Assembly (NCBI GenBank): GCA_019894885.1
Contig: JAGXNP010000003.1
Span: 1-47,080 of the forward strand
Direction of reading: 5' to 3'
Length of the DNA stretch: 47,080 nt
From: Promethearchaeota archaeon
GTDB lineage: Archaea; Asgardarchaeota; Lokiarchaeia; Sigyniarchaeales; SOKP01
Both the position numbers and the translations under genes were made by a program. Of the stretch, positions 3,385 to 44,883 are shown piece after piece. Below the pieces are notes generated by a model, which saw nothing but the letters and a program-made list of their open reading frames with translations, was not told the DNA's origin and did not search any database. Each line of letters starts with the position of its first letter. The stretch's first letter is position 1.

Positions 3385-4125
3385 TTATTTTTTTCTATTT
3401 TTCCACCAATATGGGATTCCAAGCTTGATAAATTTACCGTAATCTAAGAGTAAAATATGATCTTCGATTATTGAAAACGCAAATCCTCCCAGATAATCTA
3501 CCCAGCGCTCATCAGGTGGGAGCCCAAACCATCCAAATCTAAAAATCATAGTATGAAAATCATGAGTAACAAAGATATTGATACCACCTTCAGAAATGCG
3601 CTCTACTTGGCTCCAAATTAGTCCACCACTTCTTTCATAGAAAGGTTGTGCTGGAGGCCATAGATTTGGTGAATAGACGCCTGCTAAATAACGAAGGATC
3701 ACTTGATAATCTTTATAAGTATTAAATTCATCCAAATACGATTGAGAGTTTATTCCAATGCCATATAAAGCGTTACATTCTCCGATAATATCTCCCTTTC
3801 CGTTTGCTTCTTTGAACCCTTGGTAAATTTTCTCAGCAGTCACTTTACAACGGATGCGAGGGCTATGAAATAATCGTATATATCTATCTTTTAGTAGATT
3901 TCCGCCAAAAATTTTAGCAAATTCTTGTCCTAACGGAGTAAGCTCCATATTTGCCCCTTTCAGATCATTCTCATTAACCAATTTTGGCTCGTATCTTTGG
4001 GAATGTCTCATTATTATAATAATCTTAGAATCAGCGGGAAATTTATCAAGACCTTCAATGATATTACTCGCTTGTTTTGTCCAAGTATGTTCTTTCCTAA
4101 TATTATTACTTAATTTATTCGGCAT
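3385..4125 (-). CDS. Histidine phosphatase (phosphoglycerate mutase-like) family protein
   Basis: 'IIMRHS', 'LTPLG', 'HSPRIRCKVTA', 'VTHD'. Start moved to ATG 4125 because the track start (4212) overlaps mutM, and the paralog at 23049 aligns from here. Confidence 0.85.
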   Translation of the reverse strand: MPNKLSNNIRKEHTWTKQASNIIEGLDKFPADSKIIIIMRHSQRYEPKLVNENDLKGANMELTPLGQEFAKIFGGNLLKDRYIRLFHSPRIRCKVTAEKIYQGFKEANGKGDIIGECNALYGIGINSQSYLDEFNTYKDYQVILRYLAGVYSPNLWPPAQPFYERSGGLIWSQVERISEGGINIFVTHDFHTMIFRFGWFGLPPDERWVDYLGGFAFSIIEDHILLLDYGKFIKLGIPYWWKNRKK

Positions 4126-4159
4126 AATTATGCTCCAATTTTTAAATAATTTGATGGGT

Positions 4160-4939
4160 TTAATTCTTTTGACAAGATGGGCAAAAAAAGCCATGGCGTC
4201 CTGAAATTTCAAAACGGGTAATATCGCTATTGCAAGTTGGACATTTTTCTTCTTTCTTACGATGGGGAATTAAAAACTCGTTTGGATAAGTGCTTAAATC
4301 ACCTTTTTTCTTTATTCCAAATTCTAATACATCTTTAATATTCCTGTATAGCTCTTTTACTTTGCCTTCACTTAACGTATTAATATTAGTTTTAGGGTGT
4401 ATCCTTGTCCTGAACAAAATTTCGTCAGAATAAATATTCCCGACACCTGCGATAAAACTTTGATTTAGTAATGCGTTCTTAGCAATCGCTTTTCTTCTTT
4501 GCACAGCTTCTTGAAATTCCTCGAGCGACATTTTGTAGGCGTCTGGCCCTAATTTTTTATATTCGATAAATTCCTCTATTGAATTAGCAATAGATACCTT
4601 CCCAAACATTCTAATAGAGATGTATGCTAAATTATAGCCGTTATTGAAATGAAATATAACTTTACTGAATTTAGGAGGTTCTTCTTTTGAATCGTAATAT
4701 TCTAAATCTCCGCTCATCCCAAAATGTAGTATAAGATATCCTGGCTTGAGATAGACTAATAGATACTTACCATGGCGGATGGTCGATTCGAATTTCCTGC
4801 CTTTTAATAATTTATTTAGATCATTCTCTTCTGTCTTTAGAATTCTCTCGTCCAATATTTGAACTTTATTAATCAATAGCTTTAGGGATGTTTTATCTAG
4901 GTATCGTTTGAATGTTTCTACTTCTGGAAGTTCTGGCAT
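4160..4939 (-). CDS. mutM: Formamidopyrimidine-DNA glycosylase (Fpg/Nei family)
   Basis: N-terminal MPELPEVE, RHGKY, HFGMSG, RMFG, H2TH motif LLNQSFIAGVGNIYSDEILF, C-terminal zinc finger CPTC...CPSCQ. Confidence 0.93.
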   Translation of the reverse strand: MPELPEVETFKRYLDKTSLKLLINKVQILDERILKTEENDLNKLLKGRKFESTIRHGKYLLVYLKPGYLILHFGMSGDLEYYDSKEEPPKFSKVIFHFNNGYNLAYISIRMFGKVSIANSIEEFIEYKKLGPDAYKMSLEEFQEAVQRRKAIAKNALLNQSFIAGVGNIYSDEILFRTRIHPKTNINTLSEGKVKELYRNIKDVLEFGIKKKGDLSTYPNEFLIPHRKKEEKCPTCNSDITRFEISGRHGFFCPSCQKN

Positions 4940-4967
4940 GGTATAGATGATCTTTTGTCTATTCTCT

Positions 4968-5354
4968 CTATGCGACTATTGCGACTACAAAACAACATAT
5001 TGCGGCTATTAACGATAAGGGAGTCATTATAATCTTTTCTTTTTTGCTTTTTGATAATGCGTTTAGTAGTGTATTTAAAGCTAAATATACCGCAATAACC
5101 CAAACAACTACTAGAGTAAAAATTGGGTTGTTAAAGAGAATAATTATGCCAGTTCGTTCTAATATTGAAATTGATGCTAAAACAAAAATTCCAATAGCCA
5201 CAATGCTCATTATCCTCATCTTAGTAGGAAGTCTTTCGTACTTTCCTCCATAAGCTAGTTTGCCTAATGGTAATCCCAAGGCAAGCAGTAATTGAATTAT
5301 ACTCACTACAGCAAAAATAACAACAGCAATTAAAGCTGCAATTAAAATAGTCAT
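4968..5354 (-). CDS. Small 4-TM membrane protein
   Basis: 128 aa, hydrophobic, with conserved-looking 'QLLLALGLPLGKLAYGG' and 'LNALSKSKKEK'; GGAG upstream. Confidence 0.75.
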   Translation of the reverse strand: MTILIAALIAVVIFAVVSIIQLLLALGLPLGKLAYGGKYERLPTKMRIMSIVAIGIFVLASISILERTGIIILFNNPIFTLVVVWVIAVYLALNTLLNALSKSKKEKIIMTPLSLIAAICCFVVAIVA

Positions 5355-5548
5355 TTTTTATCTCCTAACATGATGGCTAACTTTTGAATATTAATTATTG
5401 TGTTTCAAACTTTATATATAATAGCATCATAAGAAATAATAGTAACACCTTGAATCAATAAAATTAATGTGGGTGAAAAAGATTGAGTAAACATTATAAA
5501 TTAAGTGCGTCTGATTTTACAGAGGGAATCTCTGCTTAAGGAGCTGCA

Positions 5549-22415: not shown

Positions 22416-22979
22416 ATGGAAATTAAAACTCCAAAAATTGATTTAACATTTAAAATGTGTATATTTGGAGATTCACATGTTGGTAAATCAACATTGATCA
22501 ACCGATATATTACTGCTAAATTTGATCATGACCTCAAGTCGACTTTAGGAGCGGCAATTTTGATGAAATTCATAGAAACGGAAACTACGAGAATAACACT
22601 TCAAATTTGGGATTTTGGTGGAGAAAATAGGTTTACTTCTCTTTTACCTAGCTATGCTCAAGGATCATCTGCAGCAATTTTTATGTGCGACATTTCTAAT
22701 CATGATAGCATTACGAATATAGATAAATGGTTCTTGAAATTTAACGAAGGACTGAACAATCGGGATCCAAAATTTCCTCTAATTATAGTTGGTGGAAAGT
22801 TGGACTTAGAAGAACAGCGATCTTTTAATAAAAAAGATATTGAAACTATCTTTACAGTACGAAAAGAATTTGATTACCTCGAATGCTCTTCAAAAACCGG
22901 AGAAAATGTAAATTTGCTTTTTAAAACTATTGTCGATAAAGTGTTGATTTATAGAAAGATTAAGCCATCTATAAGATAA
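22416..22979 (+). CDS. Rab-like small GTPase
   Basis: G1 GDSHVGKS, G2 STLG, G3 LQIWDFGGE, 'RFTSLLPSY', G4 GGKLD, G5 ECSSKTGENV; no C-terminal Cys. Confidence 0.9.
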   Translation: MEIKTPKIDLTFKMCIFGDSHVGKSTLINRYITAKFDHDLKSTLGAAILMKFIETETTRITLQIWDFGGENRFTSLLPSYAQGSSAAIFMCDISNHDSITNIDKWFLKFNEGLNNRDPKFPLIIVGGKLDLEEQRSFNKKDIETIFTVRKEFDYLECSSKTGENVNLLFKTIVDKVLIYRKIKPSIR

Positions 22980-26859: not shown

Positions 26860-27669
26860 ATGGATTTATCGGACGAACAAATTAATAGGTATTCACGGCA
26901 GATTGTGCTAAAGGAAGTTGGTGGAATAGGCCAAAACAAGTTGCTAGATTCCAAAATTTCATTAATAGGATTAGGAGCTCTCGGATCCTCTGCTGCTTAC
27001 TATTTAGCTGCTGCTGGCGTCGGAACATTACAGATAATTGATTTTGATACCGTTGAATTATCAAATTTACATAGACAAATCCTTCATTTTACGAAGGATA
27101 TTAACAGTAAAAAAACTAGTAGTGCTGCAGATAAGCTAAACTCGTTGAATCCAGATTGTACTATTGAAATTGTTAACGATCACATTACTCCTAAAAATTC
27201 TAAAGCTTTACTTAAGGATTCGAACTTCGTTATTGAAGGTTCTGATAACATTCAAACTAAAATGCTCATAAACGATACATGTATTAGTTTAAAAATTCCT
27301 TTCACGATTGCGGGTGTATTGAGGTTCCACGGTCAAATTATGACTGTTGTTCCAGAAAAAAAGACATCATGTTATCGGTGCGTGTTCGGTGATATCACCG
27401 AGGTGGATTCAAGTATGTCGTGTTCTCAAGCGGGAGTAATTGGTTTCGTTCCTGGAGTTTTAGGTTGCCTAGAAGCCAATGAAGCGCTGAAATATATACT
27501 AAATATAGGTGATTTATTAACAAACAAAATAATGTATGTGGATCTTTTAAGAAACAGTTTTAATTTTATTGAAATACACAGAGATAATAAATGTATCGCA
27601 TGTGGGGACAACGCTAAGGATTTAGTTGAAGAAGCAAATTATGGGGGTTTAGATGCTTGCGATGAGTAG
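26860..27669 (+). CDS. moeB: MoeB/ThiF/UbaA E1-like adenylyltransferase
   Basis: RYSRQI, GLGALG, DTVELSNLHRQ, CYRC, catalytic SCSQAG, CIAC. Confidence 0.93.
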   Translation: MDLSDEQINRYSRQIVLKEVGGIGQNKLLDSKISLIGLGALGSSAAYYLAAAGVGTLQIIDFDTVELSNLHRQILHFTKDINSKKTSSAADKLNSLNPDCTIEIVNDHITPKNSKALLKDSNFVIEGSDNIQTKMLINDTCISLKIPFTIAGVLRFHGQIMTVVPEKKTSCYRCVFGDITEVDSSMSCSQAGVIGFVPGVLGCLEANEALKYILNIGDLLTNKIMYVDLLRNSFNFIEIHRDNKCIACGDNAKDLVEEANYGGLDACDE

Positions 27670-27925
27670 TATAGATAAACCAAGCTATAAAGAAAGCACT
27701 CAATTAGATATTCGAGGTAAAGTCTGTCCATTAACATTTGTTTACACTAAATTAGCATTAGAGGAACTAGAGACGGGTAGGATTCTAGAGGTATTTTTAG
27801 ATTTTCCTGCAGCTCTTAAGAATATTCCCGAAAGTTGTAGAAGACAAAATATTGCTGAATTATTAGAAATAAAGAAACACCATTCTGATAAACCGGAATG
27901 GATAATGATATTGAAAAAACTATAA
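27662..27925 (+). CDS. tusA: TusA/SirA-family sulfur carrier
   Basis: LDIRGKVCPLTFV, 'LEVFLD'; overlaps the E1 stop codon. Confidence 0.88.
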   Translation: MSSIDKPSYKESTQLDIRGKVCPLTFVYTKLALEELETGRILEVFLDFPAALKNIPESCRRQNIAELLEIKKHHSDKPEWIMILKKL

Positions 27926-28963
27926 ATGTCGGTGAGCTATTTCCTGAACGATATTACTAATGAGACCCCTATAGGTTTAGGTTTAATTTCTGGTGGTTTA
28001 GATAGTTTAATTGCATGTTTGGTTTTAAAATTACAGGGTATTAAAGTCGTTGCATTGAATTTCAAATCTCCATTTTGCATCTGTGATAAGGCCTATAAAA
28101 ATGTAGAATGCGGCTTAAATCTCTATTCCGATAAATTGGATATAAAAACTTATCATCTTCAGAAAGAAGACGATTATTTAGATGTAATTCAAAATCCTAA
28201 ATTTGGCTATGGTAAAAATTTGAATCCATGTATAGATTGTAGAATATACATTTTAAAGAAGGCAAAATTATTCGCTGAGAAAATTAATGCTGATTTTATT
28301 TTTACCGGTGAAGTCTTAGATCAGAGACCTAAGTCTCAGAATCTTAAAGCGTTAAGAATAATCGAGGAAGAATCAAATCTTAAAGGAAAATTGCTTAGAC
28401 CTTTATCTGCTTTAATGCTAAAACCAACTATTTTGGAACGAGAAGGATTAATTGATAGATCTAGGCTACTCGGGATTAAAGGGAGGAGTAGAAAAAAGCA
28501 ATTAGAACTCGCGAGAGCTCATGGTCTTTTGAACGAATATAACGCGTGTGGAGGATGTCTCCTTACAGAAAAAGAATTTGCTAATAGAATGAAAGACTAT
28601 CTTAAATTTAGCAAAAATCCTACCATGGAAGGGGTAACACTTCTAAAGTATGGCAGACACTTCAGATTTAATGGAGCTAAAATTATCATTGGGAGAAATG
28701 AATTAGAAAACGATTTTTTACTCCAACTAAAGGGATCGGATGGACTTATAATGGAAGCTTCCGATGTAAAGGGCCCGATAACCCTTATTCAGGGTAATGT
28801 TGAAGAGGCTGTAATTAAATTTGCTGCGAGATTGACATTAAGATATTCAGATGCTATAAAATCCCGGGGAGAAGTTATATATGGTAGAGATTCTAGCATC
28901 CTCAATGAATATTTATTAGTAGAAAAAGCAACTCAAGAATCATTAAAACCCTATCTTCTATAG
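27926..28963 (+). CDS. PP-loop tRNA thiouridylase-like protein (ThiI/MnmA-related, no THUMP) with C-terminal DUF814/NFACT-R-like domain
   Basis: SGGLDS PP-loop, PFCICD, NPCIDCR, TGEVLDQRPKSQ, LLRPLSA, CGGCLLT, GRHFR, GRNELEN. Confidence 0.8.
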   Translation: MSVSYFLNDITNETPIGLGLISGGLDSLIACLVLKLQGIKVVALNFKSPFCICDKAYKNVECGLNLYSDKLDIKTYHLQKEDDYLDVIQNPKFGYGKNLNPCIDCRIYILKKAKLFAEKINADFIFTGEVLDQRPKSQNLKALRIIEEESNLKGKLLRPLSALMLKPTILEREGLIDRSRLLGIKGRSRKKQLELARAHGLLNEYNACGGCLLTEKEFANRMKDYLKFSKNPTMEGVTLLKYGRHFRFNGAKIIIGRNELENDFLLQLKGSDGLIMEASDVKGPITLIQGNVEEAVIKFAARLTLRYSDAIKSRGEVIYGRDSSILNEYLLVEKATQESLKPYLL

Positions 28964-39460: not shown

Positions 39461-39952
39461 TTGGCAACAGATTATAGCGTAATATGTAAACTCGGAGGAT
39501 ATGTTAACAGCAATCCAGAACTCATTTCTTCCTATCCGTCACTTGATCAATCATTAAAAACAGAGATTCTACCAAAGTGTTTCCCAATTGGCGCTAAAAC
39601 TGGTGACTTTATCGTCGAAAAATATCGCAAATATGTTGTTTTATCTTATATTTTTAGGGTCAATCAAACAGCAGATAGAGACGATATCTTCTCATTATCA
39701 GTTCTACTTAATAAAAAAGATAAGACAGAAATTTACAAGCCTGTGCTTCAAAGTTTGATAGACAAATTAGAACAGAATGATCTCTTAAACGAGCATGTAT
39801 TAACTAAGAACCAACGAGCTATCTTTGAAGGGATGAACCAAGAAAAGAATGTTACTATTAGTAATGTCTTAATTGATCTTTCTAAAGTTTTTAAAGAAAT
39901 CAAATCTAAAATACTGAAACCAGAAATAAAAGTGAAAGGGAGTTTTTTGTAA
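39461..39952 (+). CDS. uDENN/longin-like protein (candidate GTPase regulator)
   Basis: 'PELISSYP...EILPKCFPIG' resembles the uDENN signature; beta4-loop-beta5 'VLSYIFRVNQTADRDDIFSLSVLL' followed by a helix. Confidence 0.55.
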   Translation: MATDYSVICKLGGYVNSNPELISSYPSLDQSLKTEILPKCFPIGAKTGDFIVEKYRKYVVLSYIFRVNQTADRDDIFSLSVLLNKKDKTEIYKPVLQSLIDKLEQNDLLNEHVLTKNQRAIFEGMNQEKNVTISNVLIDLSKVFKEIKSKILKPEIKVKGSFL

Positions 39953-39953
39953 A

Positions 39954-40595
39954 ATGGCAGAAGATTTTTTTTTATCAAGTCTTGGAATTGTGGCTAATCT
40001 TTCGAGTGCAATATTTATACCTATTGCGACATTAATTTTAGGCAGAAAGCTTCTCAAAGACAAGAAAGAAACGGGAAAATACAATATTATACGATTAATT
40101 ATATTTCTTTCTTTCCTGAACTTCTCGATATTAGCAATCATCGAGTTTCTTTTAAAAAATACCCCGTTAATTCCACCTTTTATAGAAGAATTATATAGCG
40201 CTGAATTCGGTTTCTATAATACATCTGTAGCTATTAGGGTGACCTTAGGTCTTACTTTGATTTTTTATATTAATAGATGGGAAATATTACACTTCTCAGC
40301 TATTTTCTTCTTCATTGGAATGTTATTTCTTTATTTATTTACTGGGTTTTCCGCTTGGCTTGAGAATTACACGATTATTGCAGGAGTTGCAAGCATTCTC
40401 TTTTTATACTTTACGGCATTTCGCATGAAGGACAATGGCGCTCTTAGTATAGCAATCTTTTTCACCCTAACATTTAGTATTCAATTTATTTCTGAAGCAT
40501 TGGTCTCAGAAATAATTATTATAAGTTATGTAGCTTTTGTTGTTATCTTCTCACTGGGATTGTTTAGACCATATAAACAGGAGGTAAATACTTAA
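39954..40595 (+). CDS. 7-TM membrane protein A
   Basis: Seven hydrophobic segments by eye; 1 nt from the upstream stop; paralog of the next gene. Confidence 0.75.
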   Translation: MAEDFFLSSLGIVANLSSAIFIPIATLILGRKLLKDKKETGKYNIIRLIIFLSFLNFSILAIIEFLLKNTPLIPPFIEELYSAEFGFYNTSVAIRVTLGLTLIFYINRWEILHFSAIFFFIGMLFLYLFTGFSAWLENYTIIAGVASILFLYFTAFRMKDNGALSIAIFFTLTFSIQFISEALVSEIIIISYVAFVVIFSLGLFRPYKQEVNT

Positions 40596-40596
40596 T

Positions 40597-41247
40597 ATGG
40601 CGGAGATAGGTTTCTTGTTTATGGAACTCGTTTATTTTACTATGGGGCTGATGACTGTTTTTACTACATTAAAACAATGGAAGATAAATAAAAACAGAAT
40701 GTTAATTGCTGTATCAATATATGTTGCAGCGGTATTGGTAACATCAATCATTGATATTTCAATCTATCTGTTTGACTTTGATATTGATATCCTGATAGCT
40801 GGAGGATTGACAATTGGAATGATTCTCGGGTTCATATTATTTACGATTCAATTAGAATTCATGTTCTATTTAAAGGATTTACCTAAACTATACACTCTTC
40901 CCTTTTTTGCCAGTTTTTATCTTGCATTCGGAAAAGTGTTAGTTGACTCAACAATACCTTTTATAATTTACGCGATGATTGTAAGTTACGGATCTGCCTA
41001 CTTTCTCATCAAAGACGGAAGGAAAAGTCGTAACGGATTAGCAATCGGAATGGGGCTATTCTTTCTCATATGGGGCCTAGGACAGACATTTCAACTTGAG
41101 ACTATAATCATTAGCTTTAGAATAGTTGCAATGGTGGCACTCTTATTAGGTACAAGAGGTTTTTATGAGAAATATGTATTCGTCAATGTAGAAGAAGAAC
41201 AGAAAATAATGGGAACCTGGATTGCAAAATTGGTAGTAAAGGAATAA
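40597..41247 (+). CDS. 7-TM membrane protein B
   Basis: Seven hydrophobic segments; GGAGGT RBS inside the upstream gene; shares 'NG(A/L)xxxxxFF' and 'FY(I/L)xxxxxL' with protein A. Confidence 0.75.
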   Translation: MAEIGFLFMELVYFTMGLMTVFTTLKQWKINKNRMLIAVSIYVAAVLVTSIIDISIYLFDFDIDILIAGGLTIGMILGFILFTIQLEFMFYLKDLPKLYTLPFFASFYLAFGKVLVDSTIPFIIYAMIVSYGSAYFLIKDGRKSRNGLAIGMGLFFLIWGLGQTFQLETIIISFRIVAMVALLLGTRGFYEKYVFVNVEEEQKIMGTWIAKLVVKE

Positions 41248-41511
41248 TAACGATTTTTTTAATTTTTTTCTTTTGCTATTAACCCAATCAGGGATATTAA
41301 TGAAATTTTAATCTAATTTTAGGTTTGTATTTTTACAATAGACTCTTTTTGTTCTACTGAAAAAAAGGAAAATAGGTTCAACAAAAAAATAATTCTGTGA
41401 CAATGTAACAAACAATAACATAAATAATTTCGTTTATAATTATAGTGTGTTATTATAGTTTCAAGATATAAATTATAGTACTATTTCTAAAACAATATAA
41501 GATAGAGTATA

Positions 41512-42408
41512 ATGGGAATTAAAGATATTTTGAAACGAGTATTTACTAAAGAAAAAAAAATTGTTATTACCGGACTTGACAGCGCTGGCAAAACCACCAT
41601 GATTAGTTTTCTACAGAATGGTACCTTTATGGAACATACACCCACAATGGGTAAAGAATTATCTCAAATTGAAGTACAAGGAATTCGTATAAATGTTATG
41701 GATATGGGTGGGCAAAAAGATTTCAGAGATTTATGGATTGGAGAAGCTTCGACTGCTGAGTGTGTAATATTTATGATAGACGCAGGGGCTCGAGAAAGAT
41801 TCAACGAAGCTAAAGACGAGCTATGGAAGTTATCTTCCATTTTTAAGAAGAAACCCCTGATAGTACTAGCAAATAAATACGATCTTCAACCTATTGCCTC
41901 TATTAGTGAAATTATTGCAGCTTTGAATTTGAAAGATTTACCCTCTTTTGAAGTATTACCGATTTCATGTAAAACTGGATATGGAATTGTAAAAGCATTC
42001 ATGAAGATGTACTATAAATTAACTGGTAAGCAACTGACCCAAAAGACAAGCCTTAGAGCTATTACCATTTTTGATCAGGGAGGAATTCCTTTAACATCAT
42101 CCTCAAATAAAGATATATTACAGGGGGGATTATTTACTGCCATTCATAATTTTGTGAGGGAATCTTTTAATTCTGAACTTGATCAACTTAAAATGGGAGA
42201 ACATCTTATCCTATTCAAACGATCGAAACATCTTATGGGCTCAATAATAGTTAATGATAATGATAATGTTGATATCAAAGAAGCAGAGTCAGGATTAAAT
42301 GATTTATTACTCCATTTAGAGCATATGTGTCCTGAGCTCGAGAAAGAACAATTAAATTATGGTAAAATCGAGTATTTAGTGGAACAATACGCTTCAAATC
42401 TGTTCTAA
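41512..42408 (+). CDS. Arf-family small GTPase fused to a C-terminal longin domain
   Basis: MG-amphipathic N-terminal helix, GLDSAGKTT, TPTMG, DMGGQKDFRDLW, VIFMID, NKYD, SCKTG; C-terminal 'AITIFDQGGIPL...GGLFTAIHNFVRE...LKMGEHLILF'. Confidence 0.88.
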   Translation: MGIKDILKRVFTKEKKIVITGLDSAGKTTMISFLQNGTFMEHTPTMGKELSQIEVQGIRINVMDMGGQKDFRDLWIGEASTAECVIFMIDAGARERFNEAKDELWKLSSIFKKKPLIVLANKYDLQPIASISEIIAALNLKDLPSFEVLPISCKTGYGIVKAFMKMYYKLTGKQLTQKTSLRAITIFDQGGIPLTSSSNKDILQGGLFTAIHNFVRESFNSELDQLKMGEHLILFKRSKHLMGSIIVNDNDNVDIKEAESGLNDLLLHLEHMCPELEKEQLNYGKIEYLVEQYASNLF

Positions 42409-42525: not shown

Positions 42526-44883
42526 TTATTTATTATTGAACTTCTCTAATAAACCTTTTTGAAGCTTTTCTATTGACTTTTTAATGTTATCAATAAAAAT
42601 TTTAATCTCTTTTCCAAGATTTGGGTTAATATCAATTGCTTTCTCGAGGTTTTGAAATGCCGCATGGTAATCGTTCTTATCTAAATAGGCGTAACCCATA
42701 AAAAGCCAAGCGAACGCATAATTCGGGTCTATTTCTGTTGCTTTTTTATAGGATTCAATTGCTATATTATATTGTTTCTCGTGTTTATAAGCGTTTGCCA
42801 AATTATAATGGGCTAAAGTATAAGTGGATTCAAATCCAACTGCTATTTTATAAGAATCTATTGCTTTATCAAATTTATTTAATTTTTCGTAACTAAAACC
42901 CATATTGTTCCAAGCTTTTGCGTGATTTGAATTGAGATCAATCGCTTTTTTGAAGTACTCAATCGCGTTTTTATATTCTTTTTTCTCGTTATTTGCGATC
43001 CCGATATAATAATATGCATCGATATGTGTACTATCTAATTCTATCGCTTTATTACAGTCTTGAATCGCTGTATCATAATCTTTCCTTTCAATTTCTAATT
43101 TCGCTTTATTTATCAACTTCAATTTGTATTCGTATTTTATAGCAATTCGATTTTTAAATTCTGGGCTTTTAATTGATTCGTTAATTGTAATGGCACTTTC
43201 AAAGTGTTCAAAAGCATCTTTAAAGCTTTCGCTATCAGCCAATTGAATACCTTGTTCGACTAATAGTTTAATTTTGGAATAAAATACCTCGTCAATAGAT
43301 TTCTTGATCTGCTCCATCTCTTGGAATCTACGCGTAGGGTCATCTATTGTTTTTGCATAATCCATTTTTTTATTTAGTTTATCTAACTCTTTTTCAAATT
43401 TCTGGAGTTCTTCAGATAAATCCCCACGATCTACTAAGTCTTTTAATTCTGCTTGATACACTAAACCTTTTATTTTATTAATTTCTTCTTCCATTTCTTG
43501 AGTTAGGTACATTTTATTAGTCATTTCTAATGCTCTGTTAAAACTTTTAATAGCTTCGTTGTATTTTTTACTCGCCAATTTATCATTTCCCTCCCTAACG
43601 ACTTCATCTATCTGAGCCAAATACACTTTGTTGACTGTATTTTTTAAATCTTCTAAGTCTTCGTTAGTTTCGTCAGAGATTGGTAATCTTTTTGCTACAC
43701 TAATTGCCGCATATAGATCATTAATAGCTTTTTCGTATTCTCGTTGCCCAATTTTTTGAATAGATTTTTCTTTAATAAATTTGATTCGAATTTTGCAAGT
43801 ATTATTAATAGAATTAGTTATTTCCCTTATCTTCTCGCTTTTCTCGTTTGAATCAGGCATTTTATTTGCTAATTCTAAGGATTTGTCAAATAAATCTAAT
43901 GCCTCATTCACTACAACTATATCTTCTTCAAAGTTATCTTTTATAATTAATTCTTTTCCTTTATTAAAGATGGGTTTAATTTTCTCCAAATAGATTGGAT
44001 TTAGCACCATTGATGCGATTGAATTAATTCTTTGTATTTCTGATTTCTTGTAGTCTGTGTCGTACATATTTTTAGAGATACTTACAGCTTCTTCGAATTT
44101 TTGAGCAGCGTCCTCGAAAGTGTTTTCTTCAAATAGTTTTTTACCATCTTCCATGATTACATTTATTTTCTCTGAGTATAAGTGATTAATTAAATTTATT
44201 GAATTCTTTTTATCTGTGTTTTTTAAGTCAGAATCAAAATACTTATCCACTAGTTCCAAAGCATTCTGGTATTCTTCAAGAGCTTTATCAAATTTATTAT
44301 TATCTTTAAATTGGTTAGCAGTTTCAATTAGAGGGGAAACTTTTAATGAATAAGTATGATTAATAGTATCTTCAATTTTTTTAATCATTTGATCTTCTAG
44401 ATCTTCCATGTAAAAATCTTTTGCAGCGTTTAGTGTGTCGTATAGCATACTTATGGCTTTATCTAACTCCTGCTTATTCTTCACTCGGACGGCTTGAAAG
44501 AGAGATTCTTCGATCCTTGTTTTATTTATTAGATAACTAATCTCTTTAACTTCATAATCTCTCAAATCTTTATCTACTATCTTATCAGCAATTCTCGCTG
44601 CTTCGTCGAATGTGTTGAAAGCGGAATCAAAAATTTCATTTTCAATGAATTTTCTTGCCTCGTCAATGATATCAATGATTTTTACAGAATATATTTGGTC
44701 AATTTGGGATTTAATGTTTGCTGTTTCATCTAAGCGCTCCTCTGGTTCTTTAACTGACTCCTCAACGAATTTCAGAGCTTCTAAATACTTTTCAACAGCT
44801 TTATTGTATTCTTTAAGGTTTTTAAATTCATTCCCTTCTTGCATGATGGAATTAAGTTTCTTTAAGTCAGATTTCTTTACCAT
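42526..44883 (-). CDS. Large helical-repeat protein: about 10 three-helix repeats of ~58 aa plus about 5 C-terminal TPRs
   Basis: Repeats of the type 'I..(G/A).......Y..A...Y..A......' with a third helix; canonical TPRs 'AYYYIG', 'AWNNMG', 'AHYNLA', 'AWLFMG'. Confidence 0.85.
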   Translation of the reverse strand: MVKKSDLKKLNSIMQEGNEFKNLKEYNKAVEKYLEALKFVEESVKEPEERLDETANIKSQIDQIYSVKIIDIIDEARKFIENEIFDSAFNTFDEAARIADKIVDKDLRDYEVKEISYLINKTRIEESLFQAVRVKNKQELDKAISMLYDTLNAAKDFYMEDLEDQMIKKIEDTINHTYSLKVSPLIETANQFKDNNKFDKALEEYQNALELVDKYFDSDLKNTDKKNSINLINHLYSEKINVIMEDGKKLFEENTFEDAAQKFEEAVSISKNMYDTDYKKSEIQRINSIASMVLNPIYLEKIKPIFNKGKELIIKDNFEEDIVVVNEALDLFDKSLELANKMPDSNEKSEKIREITNSINNTCKIRIKFIKEKSIQKIGQREYEKAINDLYAAISVAKRLPISDETNEDLEDLKNTVNKVYLAQIDEVVREGNDKLASKKYNEAIKSFNRALEMTNKMYLTQEMEEEINKIKGLVYQAELKDLVDRGDLSEELQKFEKELDKLNKKMDYAKTIDDPTRRFQEMEQIKKSIDEVFYSKIKLLVEQGIQLADSESFKDAFEHFESAITINESIKSPEFKNRIAIKYEYKLKLINKAKLEIERKDYDTAIQDCNKAIELDSTHIDAYYYIGIANNEKKEYKNAIEYFKKAIDLNSNHAKAWNNMGFSYEKLNKFDKAIDSYKIAVGFESTYTLAHYNLANAYKHEKQYNIAIESYKKATEIDPNYAFAWLFMGYAYLDKNDYHAAFQNLEKAIDINPNLGKEIKIFIDNIKKSIEKLQKGLLEKFNNK

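Follow-up and report, generated by a model that had tools for sequence, protein, structure and literature searches.

The closest described systems for the locus analyzed here are the Arf-related GTPases (ArfR or AArf) of Asgard archaea, represented by HodArfR1 and GerdArfR1 (structures 8OUK, 8OUL, 8OUM and 8OUN). Our locus encodes an Arf-type GTPase with a fused C-terminal longin domain (gene P0001, 41512..42408, + strand) and lies in a 47,080-nucleotide stretch of DNA from a Promethearchaeota archaeon (assembly GCA_019894885.1, contig JAGXNP010000003.1, positions 1 to 47,080), which is called the window throughout. The protein resembles ArfR in its N-terminal helix, the DxGGQ motif and the spacing of switch I and switch II. 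Asgard ArfR structures also head its sequence matches in the PDB (8OUN, E 7.5e-28; 8OUM, 6e-26; then Arl3 and Arf1), and 8oum_A belongs to the top tier of its structural matches with a Z of 23.1. In contrast, ArfR proteins have a single domain of ~180 aa and lack Gly2, whereas the GTPase described here carries the fused longin and in most family members also Gly2. According to the available part of Vargova et al. (10.1101/2024.02.28.582541), the helix of HodArfR1 and GerdArfR1 is still needed for membrane binding in yeast without Gly2. Extra longin domains have been reported for AArf proteins in the accessible text of Zhu et al. (PMC11914678), but at the N-terminus and not at the C-terminus as in our protein. 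As far as the reviewer response accompanying that work is available, it states that there is no evidence for Asgard longin or roadblock proteins acting as guanine nucleotide exchange factors (GEFs) or GTPase-activating proteins (GAPs) of AArf (Zhu et al. PMC11914678).

The Rag-like fusions of Asgard archaea, including LokiRagO (8YL2), likewise combine a small GTPase with a domain of the longin/roadblock superfold in one chain. The portion of Liu et al. (10.1101/2020.10.19.343400) available to us describes Asgard Rag-family GTPases fused to longins and an abundance of NPRL2-like longins. In strain MK-D1, roadblock or longin domains are joined to 26 of the 74 small GTPases, and Tran et al. (PMC10933270) refer to many of these fusions as 'Rag-like but close to Arf'. 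The GTPase-longin fusion architecture is already published and not new. Unlike the Asgard Rag-like fusions, the G domain described here is of the Arf type by profile and by fold. What is added to the published architecture is a co-inherited module of four genes together with a predicted grip of one of its products, u163, on the active site of the GTPase, a prediction that is separated from its controls.

Eukaryotic longin-GAP complexes are located on membranes next to polytopic membrane proteins. They include GATOR1 (NPRL2-NPRL3) acting on RagA/B, FLCN-FNIP acting on RagC/D and C9orf72-SMCR8-WDR41 acting on Arf, as described in the accessible part of PMC12290439. A 2025 paper in Traffic, in the part that is available, describes Asgard longins of the FLCN/SMCR8 type with a GP motif and an arginine finger and asks for their client GTPases. 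Similar to the eukaryotic GAPs, the loops of u163 contain a conserved Pro and a conserved Arg and are predicted to reach the nucleotide pocket. In contrast to them, u163 is a single-domain sequence orphan of 163 aa with a putative longin fold, N-P in place of G-P and a candidate GAP role, and the second longin comes from the GTPase itself, whereas it is contributed by a paralogous GAP subunit in the eukaryotic complexes. The longin GEF heterodimers Mon1-Ccz1, CPLANE Fuzzy-Inturned, TRAPP core and BLOC-3 are the best fold matches of the fused longin (Z 10.5-12.3). However, they consist of separate subunits working on Rab-type GTPases, while in the present case longin and Arf-type GTPase are joined in cis, and a fold shared with longin GEFs shows no function.

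The GTPase gene is part of a conserved four-gene context, which had been missed by a preceding reading of the window from the letters alone (in the following the sequence-only reading). Upstream of the GTPase gene are located u163 (39461..39952, +), which encodes a soluble orphan protein and candidate GAP of 163 aa, followed by TM213 (39954..40595, +) and TM216 (40597..41247, +), which encode two seven-helix membrane proteins. These three genes are packed 1-2 nt apart and are separated from the GTPase gene by an intergenic region of 264 nt (41248..41511, +). We scored the linkage by blastp, which detected the GTPase in 43 of 44 related loci, TM216 in 37, and u163 and TM213 in 36 each. The linkage is kept where the gene order has changed, with the GTPase gene in first position in three loci (L025, L035 and L037) and divergent orientation in another one (L027). 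Second copies of the GTPase in two loci (L022 and L034), situated ~13 kb from the first copy on the same contig, have their own u163 and TM genes. In the sister family f2 (genomes G094 and G285) the order is GTPase-u163-TM213-TM216 with tight or overlapping spacing. Three further loci have lost the module jointly and retain only a longin remnant between the flanking genes (L039, 6022-6429; L042, 5808-6354; L043, 5794-6201). The flanking genes themselves, encoding a FAD oxidoreductase, a tetratricopeptide repeat (TPR) protein and an amidohydrolase, are syntenic in 24-29 of the 44 loci, and these are the unrearranged ones only.

The distribution across the 121 family genomes is given here without a p-value, as related genomes are not independent samples: longin and u163 occur together in 35 genomes, neither is found in 76, six have only the longin and four only u163. 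Where only the longin was found, five of the six cases consist of short frames (119-182 aa), and where only u163 was found, two of the four are positioned at contig ends, with TM213 seen there as well. TM213 was detected in 38 of the 121 genomes and all three profiles in 33. The four genes are co-inherited, as they stay linked through rearrangement, block duplication, joint deletion and in two sister families. Two loci show further arrangements: L091 (G310, 4576-5424) contains an in-frame fusion of u163 and longin with 283 aa, lacking the TM genes and the G domain, and in L090 (G304, 4019-4540) the genes u163-TM213-TM216 are followed by a stand-alone longin of 174 aa. The searched literature on Asgard longins, GTPases, NPRL2 and gene neighborhoods, as far as these sources are available, contains no description of this four-gene module.

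A profile search of 5.8 billion proteins revealed 100 members of the u163 family with no Pfam domain on record, which are named only 'hypothetical protein' where they are named at all; besides, there is one spurious ferredoxin-type match. Invariant residues of u163 are G13, S17-N18-P19, P42-x-G44, R73-x-D75 and the C-terminal G-x-F (G160/F162). All of them are retained in the sister-family copies; R73 in particular shows no variation among the 21 aligned rows and is also present in the three sister-family copies. To predict a complex, the GTPase (alignment A1) was combined with u163 (alignment A3) in the presence of GTP and Mg. The interaction prediction score from aligned errors (ipSAE) reached 0.77, 0.76 and 0.80, while all three controls, two with unrelated partners and one with an unrelated GTPase as replacement, gave 0.00. 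The mark used for this score is attained by most solved complexes (116 of 157) and few mismatched pairs (two of 215), counts which apply only roughly here as custom alignments, GTP and Mg were included. The runs agree in 100% of the contacts, with a predicted local distance difference test (pLDDT) value of at least 87 for the partners and 88 for u163. On the GTPase side the interface comprises residues 23-24 of the P-loop, 41-44 and 46-49 of switch I, 68-71 with the catalytic Gln68 and switch II, as well as 74 and 96. On the u163 side it comprises residues 11-13, 15-19, 41-47, 66 and 73-76, which are its invariant loops. The predicted interface, which includes the P-loop, switch I and Q68 of the GTPase, takes in both the S17-N18-P19 stretch and the R73 stretch. 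The fused longin is outside of this named interface, although this does not speak against a longin contact. Since an invariant Arg is placed on an interface loop at the nucleotide pocket, a GAP is the most economical reading, and based on the model u163 is most likely a dedicated regulator of the GTPase, with a GAP favored over a GEF or an effector of the GTP state.

The GTPase itself starts with ATG and has 298 aa, which confirms the open reading frame proposed in the sequence-only reading, and it is conserved over its whole length with 70% mean column identity in a 28-sequence alignment (A1). The G domain (residues 13-171, 41548..42024, +) has its highest Pfam score among GTPase families for Arf with 117.3 bits over residues 5-166 (cut-off 22.3), followed by Ras with 45.6, Gtr1_RagA with 27.2 and SRPRB with 25.7 bits (cut-off 25). 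Within the source genome (3.22 Mb in 279 contigs, completeness 88.8%) it ranks first among 62 matches to the Arf profile (118.6 bits, next 91.1), whereas it is only 19th of 24 for Gtr1_RagA (26.7 bits, best 147.5); the Gtr1_RagA match of 27.2 bits spans no more than profile positions 1-123 of 232, and Gtr1_RagA is not the best profile of the protein. Many of the 62 Arf-profile matches are in open frames of 300-550 aa and may hold further domains.

All G motifs are present: the P-loop GLDSAGKT (21-28), T45 of switch I, DMGGQ (64-68), NKYD (121-124) and SCK (152-154), with RDLW at residues 72-75, so that DxGGQ and RxLW are intact as had been assumed. The G motifs are invariant in alignment A1, and Q68, T45, the P-loop and NKxD are conserved even in the most divergent copies. 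The replacement of the Trp in front of DxGGQ by Met was noticed correctly, as the alignment places Met63 where Arl3 has Trp. It is part of a larger change at three positions, the Phe of switch I, the Trp preceding DxGGQ and the Tyr of switch II, which we take to be what may be called the aromatic effector triad, with the positions derived from the alignment to Arl3. In place of F/W/Y of Arl3 the GTPase has K48, M63 and E78 and therefore no aromatic triad. All 113 family members have K48 and 111 of them E78, while position 63 is aromatic in none of them but F in the sister-family copies. The conservation of K48 and E78 in place of the aromatic residues of Arl3 indicates that this surface was remodelled and yet is still under selection.

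The fold of the G domain leads to the same assignment. From switch I (PTxG) to DxGGQ the sequence aligns without gaps to GerdArfR1 and Arl3, and the interswitch has the length typical for Arf, which together with DxGGQ defines an Arf-type fold. A full-length AlphaFold model has a pLDDT of 76 and a predicted template modelling score (pTM) of 0.65, and with this model all 50 matches listed by VIA are single-domain chains of Arf, Arl or Sar proteins (Z 21-24). The G domain superimposes on Arl8, Arl1, Arf1, GerdArfR1 and Sar1 with a root-mean-square deviation (rmsd) of ~2 Å over 151-172 residues, and Foldseek agrees with VIA on an Arf-type G domain. Both the profile scores and the fold assign the G domain to the Arf type.

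The N-terminus likened to Arf1 in the sequence-only reading, MGIKDILKRVFTKEKKIVITGLDSAGKTT, is present and contains an amphipathic helix at residues 2-12 (GIKDILKRVFT, 41515..41547, +). Its hydrophobic moment of 0.67 is the highest of all 288 windows of 11 residues in the protein and was reached in 323 of 10000 segment shuffles. The hydrophobic face is formed by I3, I6, L7, V10 and F11, and the net charge is +2. Across the family the moment calculated from the sequence ranges from 0.55 to 0.78, which substantiates the proposed amphipathic helix. These and the following residue counts use 113 of the 117 full-length members, as four failed the P-loop pattern. The first two residues are MG in 100, LG in two, GL in one, MA in eight, MT in one and MR in one; the LG starts result from an alternative start codon and the GL row is offset by one residue. 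In total, 102 of 113 members have Gly at position 2 and 10 have A, T or R, and MA and MT starts were also seen in four loci of the locus set (L007, L009, L017 and L029). The N-myristoyltransferase (NMT) profiles PF01233 and PF02799 had no match in the 88.8%-complete genome, a search in which the control genomes were also blank and which thus had no positive control. The idea of a eukaryote-style Gly2 serving as lipidation site finds no support here: Gly2 is not universal, there is no NMT match and the helix of ArfR works without Gly2, and therefore lipidation is unsupported and not required. Judged from the sequences, the conserved feature appears to be the helix itself and not its lipidation, and myristoylation is unsupported.

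A linker (residues 172-182) connects the G domain to the C-terminal domain (residues 183-298, 42058..42405, +). Residues 172-298 had no Pfam family match at E up to 1, longin-type families included. The C-terminal domain was modelled alone with AlphaFold 2 from a 22-row alignment of unaltered locus translations, which resulted in a pLDDT of 82, a pTM of 0.75 and the order b-b-a-b-b-b-a-a. In a VIA comparison with 48,161 chains the ranks 1-20 are occupied only by longins (Z 9.5-12.3, 109-125 of 127 residues), with Mon1/Ccz1 as best match (Z 12.3 over 122 residues), followed by CPLANE (11.5), TRAPP (11.2) and VAMP7 (11.0). A longin of Lokiarchaeota (8YQG, Z 10.9) is among the matches, and BLOC-3, delta-COP, AP-5 sigma, Sec22 and AP mu were also found. 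Foldseek listed AP-2 sigma (7.4e-5) and then Mon1/Ccz1 among 23 matches at E up to 0.001. Roadblock/LC7, MglB and LAMTOR chains have a Z of 9.4 or less with only 88-99 aligned residues and leave out the last helix. Topology and whole-domain superposition on solved longins assign this domain to the longin structural class, in agreement with the longin that had been proposed for the last ~120 residues. It is not the roadblock-type C-terminal domain of Rag, and as both folds are related this is a difference of subtype. The only two-domain chain among the listed matches is 8yl2_B (LokiRagO), which fits poorly over both domains (TM score 0.50, rmsd 10.8 Å, 17% identity). Taken together, the sequence-only reading was right about an Arf-like G domain, an amphipathic N-terminal helix and a true longin in one chain.

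TM213 and TM216 are paralogs according to hhalign (probability 97%, E 1.2e-10, 174 columns). Both have seven family-averaged hydrophobic cores, and their K/R-rich loops predict an N-out/C-in topology. They share the motif (K/R)xxxNG(A)L in the cytoplasmic loop between TM5 and TM6. A comparison with Pfam gave no consistent family for either protein, and the structure leads from the Atlas are DUF6962 (TM score 0.66) and the membrane modules of response-regulator (0.61) and GGDEF (0.53) proteins. The C-terminal tail of TM216 is K/R-rich and cytoplasmic, has an invariant W208-I209 and a nearly invariant K211 and is conserved in the TM216 family. From these sequence features it is a candidate docking element for soluble partners.

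A word-indexed search with the GTPase returned 194 proteins at E up to 0.001, and the best 120 of these have 257-326 aa (117 of them 290-330 aa) and are 64-100% identical. Where a name is given, it is 'ADP-ribosylation factor-like protein' or 'small GTP-binding protein', and such entries originate from bins of Promethearchaeota, Loki-, Hod-, Hermod- and Thorarchaeota. Of the 301 genomes sampled from the phylum, 21 contain the longin profile, and these fall within one order: 18 of 68 genomes in family f1, two of seven in f2 and none in the 28 other sampled families. The module is confined to one order of Promethearchaeota (Lokiarchaeia-type Asgard). In the genus of the window 14 of 27 sampled genomes have the longin profile, and this patchy presence indicates that the family and the module are accessory. 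When the G domain was searched against 1.84 billion representatives, a wider set of proteins of ~295-318 aa became apparent, which share a homologous longin at the C-terminus and carry names of Hod-, Hel-, Hermod- and Promethearchaeota bins. Two single-domain relatives, P0133 (184 aa, on a contig of 884 nt) and P0130 (199 aa, beginning at query residue 30), are probably fragments. A piece of the GTPase with 59% identity is encoded on L038 (JAWODN010000133.1), a contig with the label 'Candidatus Aminicenantes bacterium'; the probable cause is mis-binning of an Asgard contig and not gene transfer.

In a FastTree phylogeny of 157 G domains the query is in a clade of 36 rows (support 95), which consists almost entirely of G+longin proteins. 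From this set 59 rows were picked for IQ-TREE (LG+C20+F+G4 PMSF): 24 of the G+longin clade, 14 of the eukaryote side (the named ones are macaque Arl3, a fish Arf4-like protein and a Salvia Arf), seven of the Heimdall ArfR side, four others and 10 Rag- or Ras-like rows of the own genome. The query is placed in a clade of 13 rows with a support of 100/97. All G+longin rows are joined with six Rag-like rows of the own genome and own_L049 in a clade of 31 rows (ultrafast bootstrap 69, SH-aLRT 96), the internal nodes of which have bootstrap values of 42-59. In approximately unbiased (AU) tests, a G+longin clade without the Rag-like rows was not rejected (p 0.405, at a cost of 3.9 log-likelihood units), and neither was a tree with the Rag-like and Ras-like rows beyond one branch (p 0.39). 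The tree resolves no grouping of the G+longin clade with the named Heimdall ArfR rows, and the family may match the Asgard-only 'ArfL' group, which Vargova et al. set apart from ArfR. The accessions NHJ23803, MBD3195152 and MBD3199822 were not in the four supplementary files of PMC11914678 that were searched, a set that does not include the AArf-list datasets D5 and D8. The source genome has two other multidomain GTPases: the protein of L049 (G000:C7:6178-6681) has 348 aa with a C-terminal Arf-type G domain (Arf 91.1, RagA 25.6 bits), and a 481-aa Rag-like protein (L053/L093, G000:C106) has a weak match to the Folliculin profile (17.6 bits) upstream of its G domain.

We favor with moderate confidence that the Arf-type GTPase-longin acts within the four-gene module and that u163 is its regulator, most likely a GAP. 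According to this model, the GTP-bound GTPase would be recruited to the membrane via its helix, as demonstrated by experiment for single-domain Asgard ArfR, and/or via the pair of 7-TM proteins. u163 would dock on the face formed by P-loop, switch I and switch II through its invariant GSNP, FPxG and R73 loops and would act as dedicated regulator, most likely as an arginine-finger GAP akin to NPRL2, FLCN and SMCR8. The fused longin may be a platform for another contact, either self-association or the cytoplasmic loops and tails of the 7-TM proteins. GTP-dependent membrane binding and a longin-mediated dimerization, both proposed in the sequence-only reading, are inferences.

Several points weigh against this model. 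u163 has no detectable relation to the fused longin by hhalign (probability 0.3%), its profile had no match in a search of the PDB, and 21 members compared with Pfam gave no consistent family. The NPR2 and Folliculin profiles match only elsewhere in the genome and there below the cut-offs. The link of u163 to NPR2 and C9orf72 comes from ESM-Atlas features, which point to archaeal clusters with Pfam NPR2 in 19% of the members (score 0.90) and to eukaryotic C9orf72-like/NPR2 clusters (score 0.76), and is a lead only. u163 has N18-P19 where the GAP longins of eukaryotes have G-P, and R73 falls within one of the interface stretches, yet the 25 pairs with the lowest error do not include it. A high score for the complex may also arise from resemblance to solved structures of longin GAPs bound to GTPases, and it does not separate a GAP from a GEF or an effector. 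The full-length model contains the N-terminal helix at residues 3-11, but with a low pLDDT (46 for residues 1-10). The module is absent from about half of the genomes of the same genus, several of which are ~100% complete. Finally, the 264-nt spacer is probably the own promoter of the GTPase gene, as suggested by two blocks conserved in 10 loci: a TATA-like TTTCAAGATATAAAT ~45 nt upstream of the ATG and ATTCTGTnGCAAnATAACAAACA ~100 nt upstream, the latter of which may be a regulator binding site. A scan for sigma-70 promoters and terminators was at chance level (16 found, 17.0 expected) and is not suited to archaea. A look-up of RNA data for 39461-42408 listed none.

These concerns have to be set against other explanations of the same data. 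The GTPase could be Rag/Gtr-like (or 'ArfL') with the longin as equivalent of the Rag dimerization domain, forming a homo- or heterodimer on a 7-TM scaffold and using its N-terminal helix independently of the nucleotide. The layout of a G domain followed by a longin/roadblock-type domain is indeed that of Rag, the Rag-like rows are included in the clade of 31 rows and can be separated from the G+longin proteins at only a small cost in likelihood, and the fusions of MK-D1 and those classed as Rag family by Liu et al. (10.1101/2020.10.19.343400, in the available part) would fit as well. For this reason the 'Arf/Rag hybrid' of the sequence-only reading is defensible with regard to the tree, but it has to be weighed against a G domain that is Arf-type by profile and fold, and the AU tests reject neither topology, as the opposite constraint with the Rag-like rows outside is equally tolerated. 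The much higher score for the Arf than for the Gtr1_RagA profile, the opposite ranks within the own genome, the 50 listed VIA matches, which are all Arf/Arl/Sar, and the ungapped interswitch all argue against a Rag-like GTPase. Furthermore, the C-terminal domain is a longin and not a roadblock, the Arf-longin GTPase is single-copy in the source genome and the conserved amphipathic helix is a defining feature of Arf. Altogether, we consider a Rag/Gtr-like GTPase unlikely.

It is improbable that the GTPase acts alone, which would make its neighbors inherited synteny and the predicted interface a mere product of resemblance to known structures of GTPases with their regulators. A single GTDB family supplies most of the loci, the flanking genes are also syntenic in part of the loci, the GTPase gene has an upstream region of its own and the complex prediction can profit from a memory of solved structures. 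However, u163 and the TM genes, unlike these flanks, follow the GTPase through reordering, duplication, deletion and into the sister family, all three controls scored zero, and the interface uses the invariant residues of u163. A cis arrangement similar to SR-beta/SRX, with the longin bound to the own switch region in the way the SR-alpha longin binds SR-beta and the module serving the targeting or insertion of membrane proteins, seems very improbable to us. It could explain why SRX longins occur among the structural matches (2go5_1 with Z 8.0, 6frk_y with 7.7 and 5ck3_A with 7.3), why SRPRB scores just above its cut-off and why genes for membrane proteins adjoin. On the other hand, the SRX matches rank 37th or lower, far below Mon1/Ccz1, CPLANE and TRAPP, the complex prediction puts u163 on the switch face instead, the geometry between both domains is uncertain in the full-length model (pTM 0.65), and an accessory, patchy module is ill-suited to a housekeeping targeting function. 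The co-inherited module with u163 as regulator stays our preferred reading.

The remaining part of the window contains some further genes of interest. There is no second copy of the GTPase; the only, weak match is to a Ras-like gene at 22452-22910, and a frame overlapping these positions, 22416-22979 (+), encodes the second small GTPase of the window, a Ras/Rab-type protein with 187 aa (Pfam Ras 125.8, Roc 89.9 bits). Convergent to the GTPase gene is a gene for a TPR protein of 785 aa (42526-44883, -), whose many TPR repeats are located in the C-terminal third. It also has a borderline match to the MIT domain (residues 185-239, 30.4 bits at a cut-off of 30) and is syntenic in 24 of the 44 loci, again the unrearranged ones only. 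A ThiF/E1-like protein (243 bits) adjoins a ThiI and NFACT-R_2 protein at 26860-28963 (+), and both may form a pair for sulfur relay or tRNA thiolation.

Asgard Arf-type GTPases bind membranes in heterologous cells, and the module offers candidate native partners for such a GTPase. It is a matched and co-inherited set of a switch, a candidate regulator with a candidate catalytic arginine and two membrane proteins, all of which are small and could be expressed for direct assays. If u163 is a GAP, the pairing of longin GAP and GTPase would predate eukaryotes. A more far-reaching possibility, which we regard as rather unlikely, is a self-contained prokaryotic circuit of membrane receptor, G protein and GAP, in which a 7-TM heterodimer anchors and activates the GTPase via its longin and u163 switches it off as a one-domain arginine-finger longin GAP. 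If this turned out to be true, an Asgard Arf would for the first time have an assigned native regulator, u163, and the module would be a streamlined archaeal counterpart, and possibly a relative, of the lysosomal nutrient-sensing assemblies GATOR1, FLCN-FNIP and C9orf72-SMCR8.

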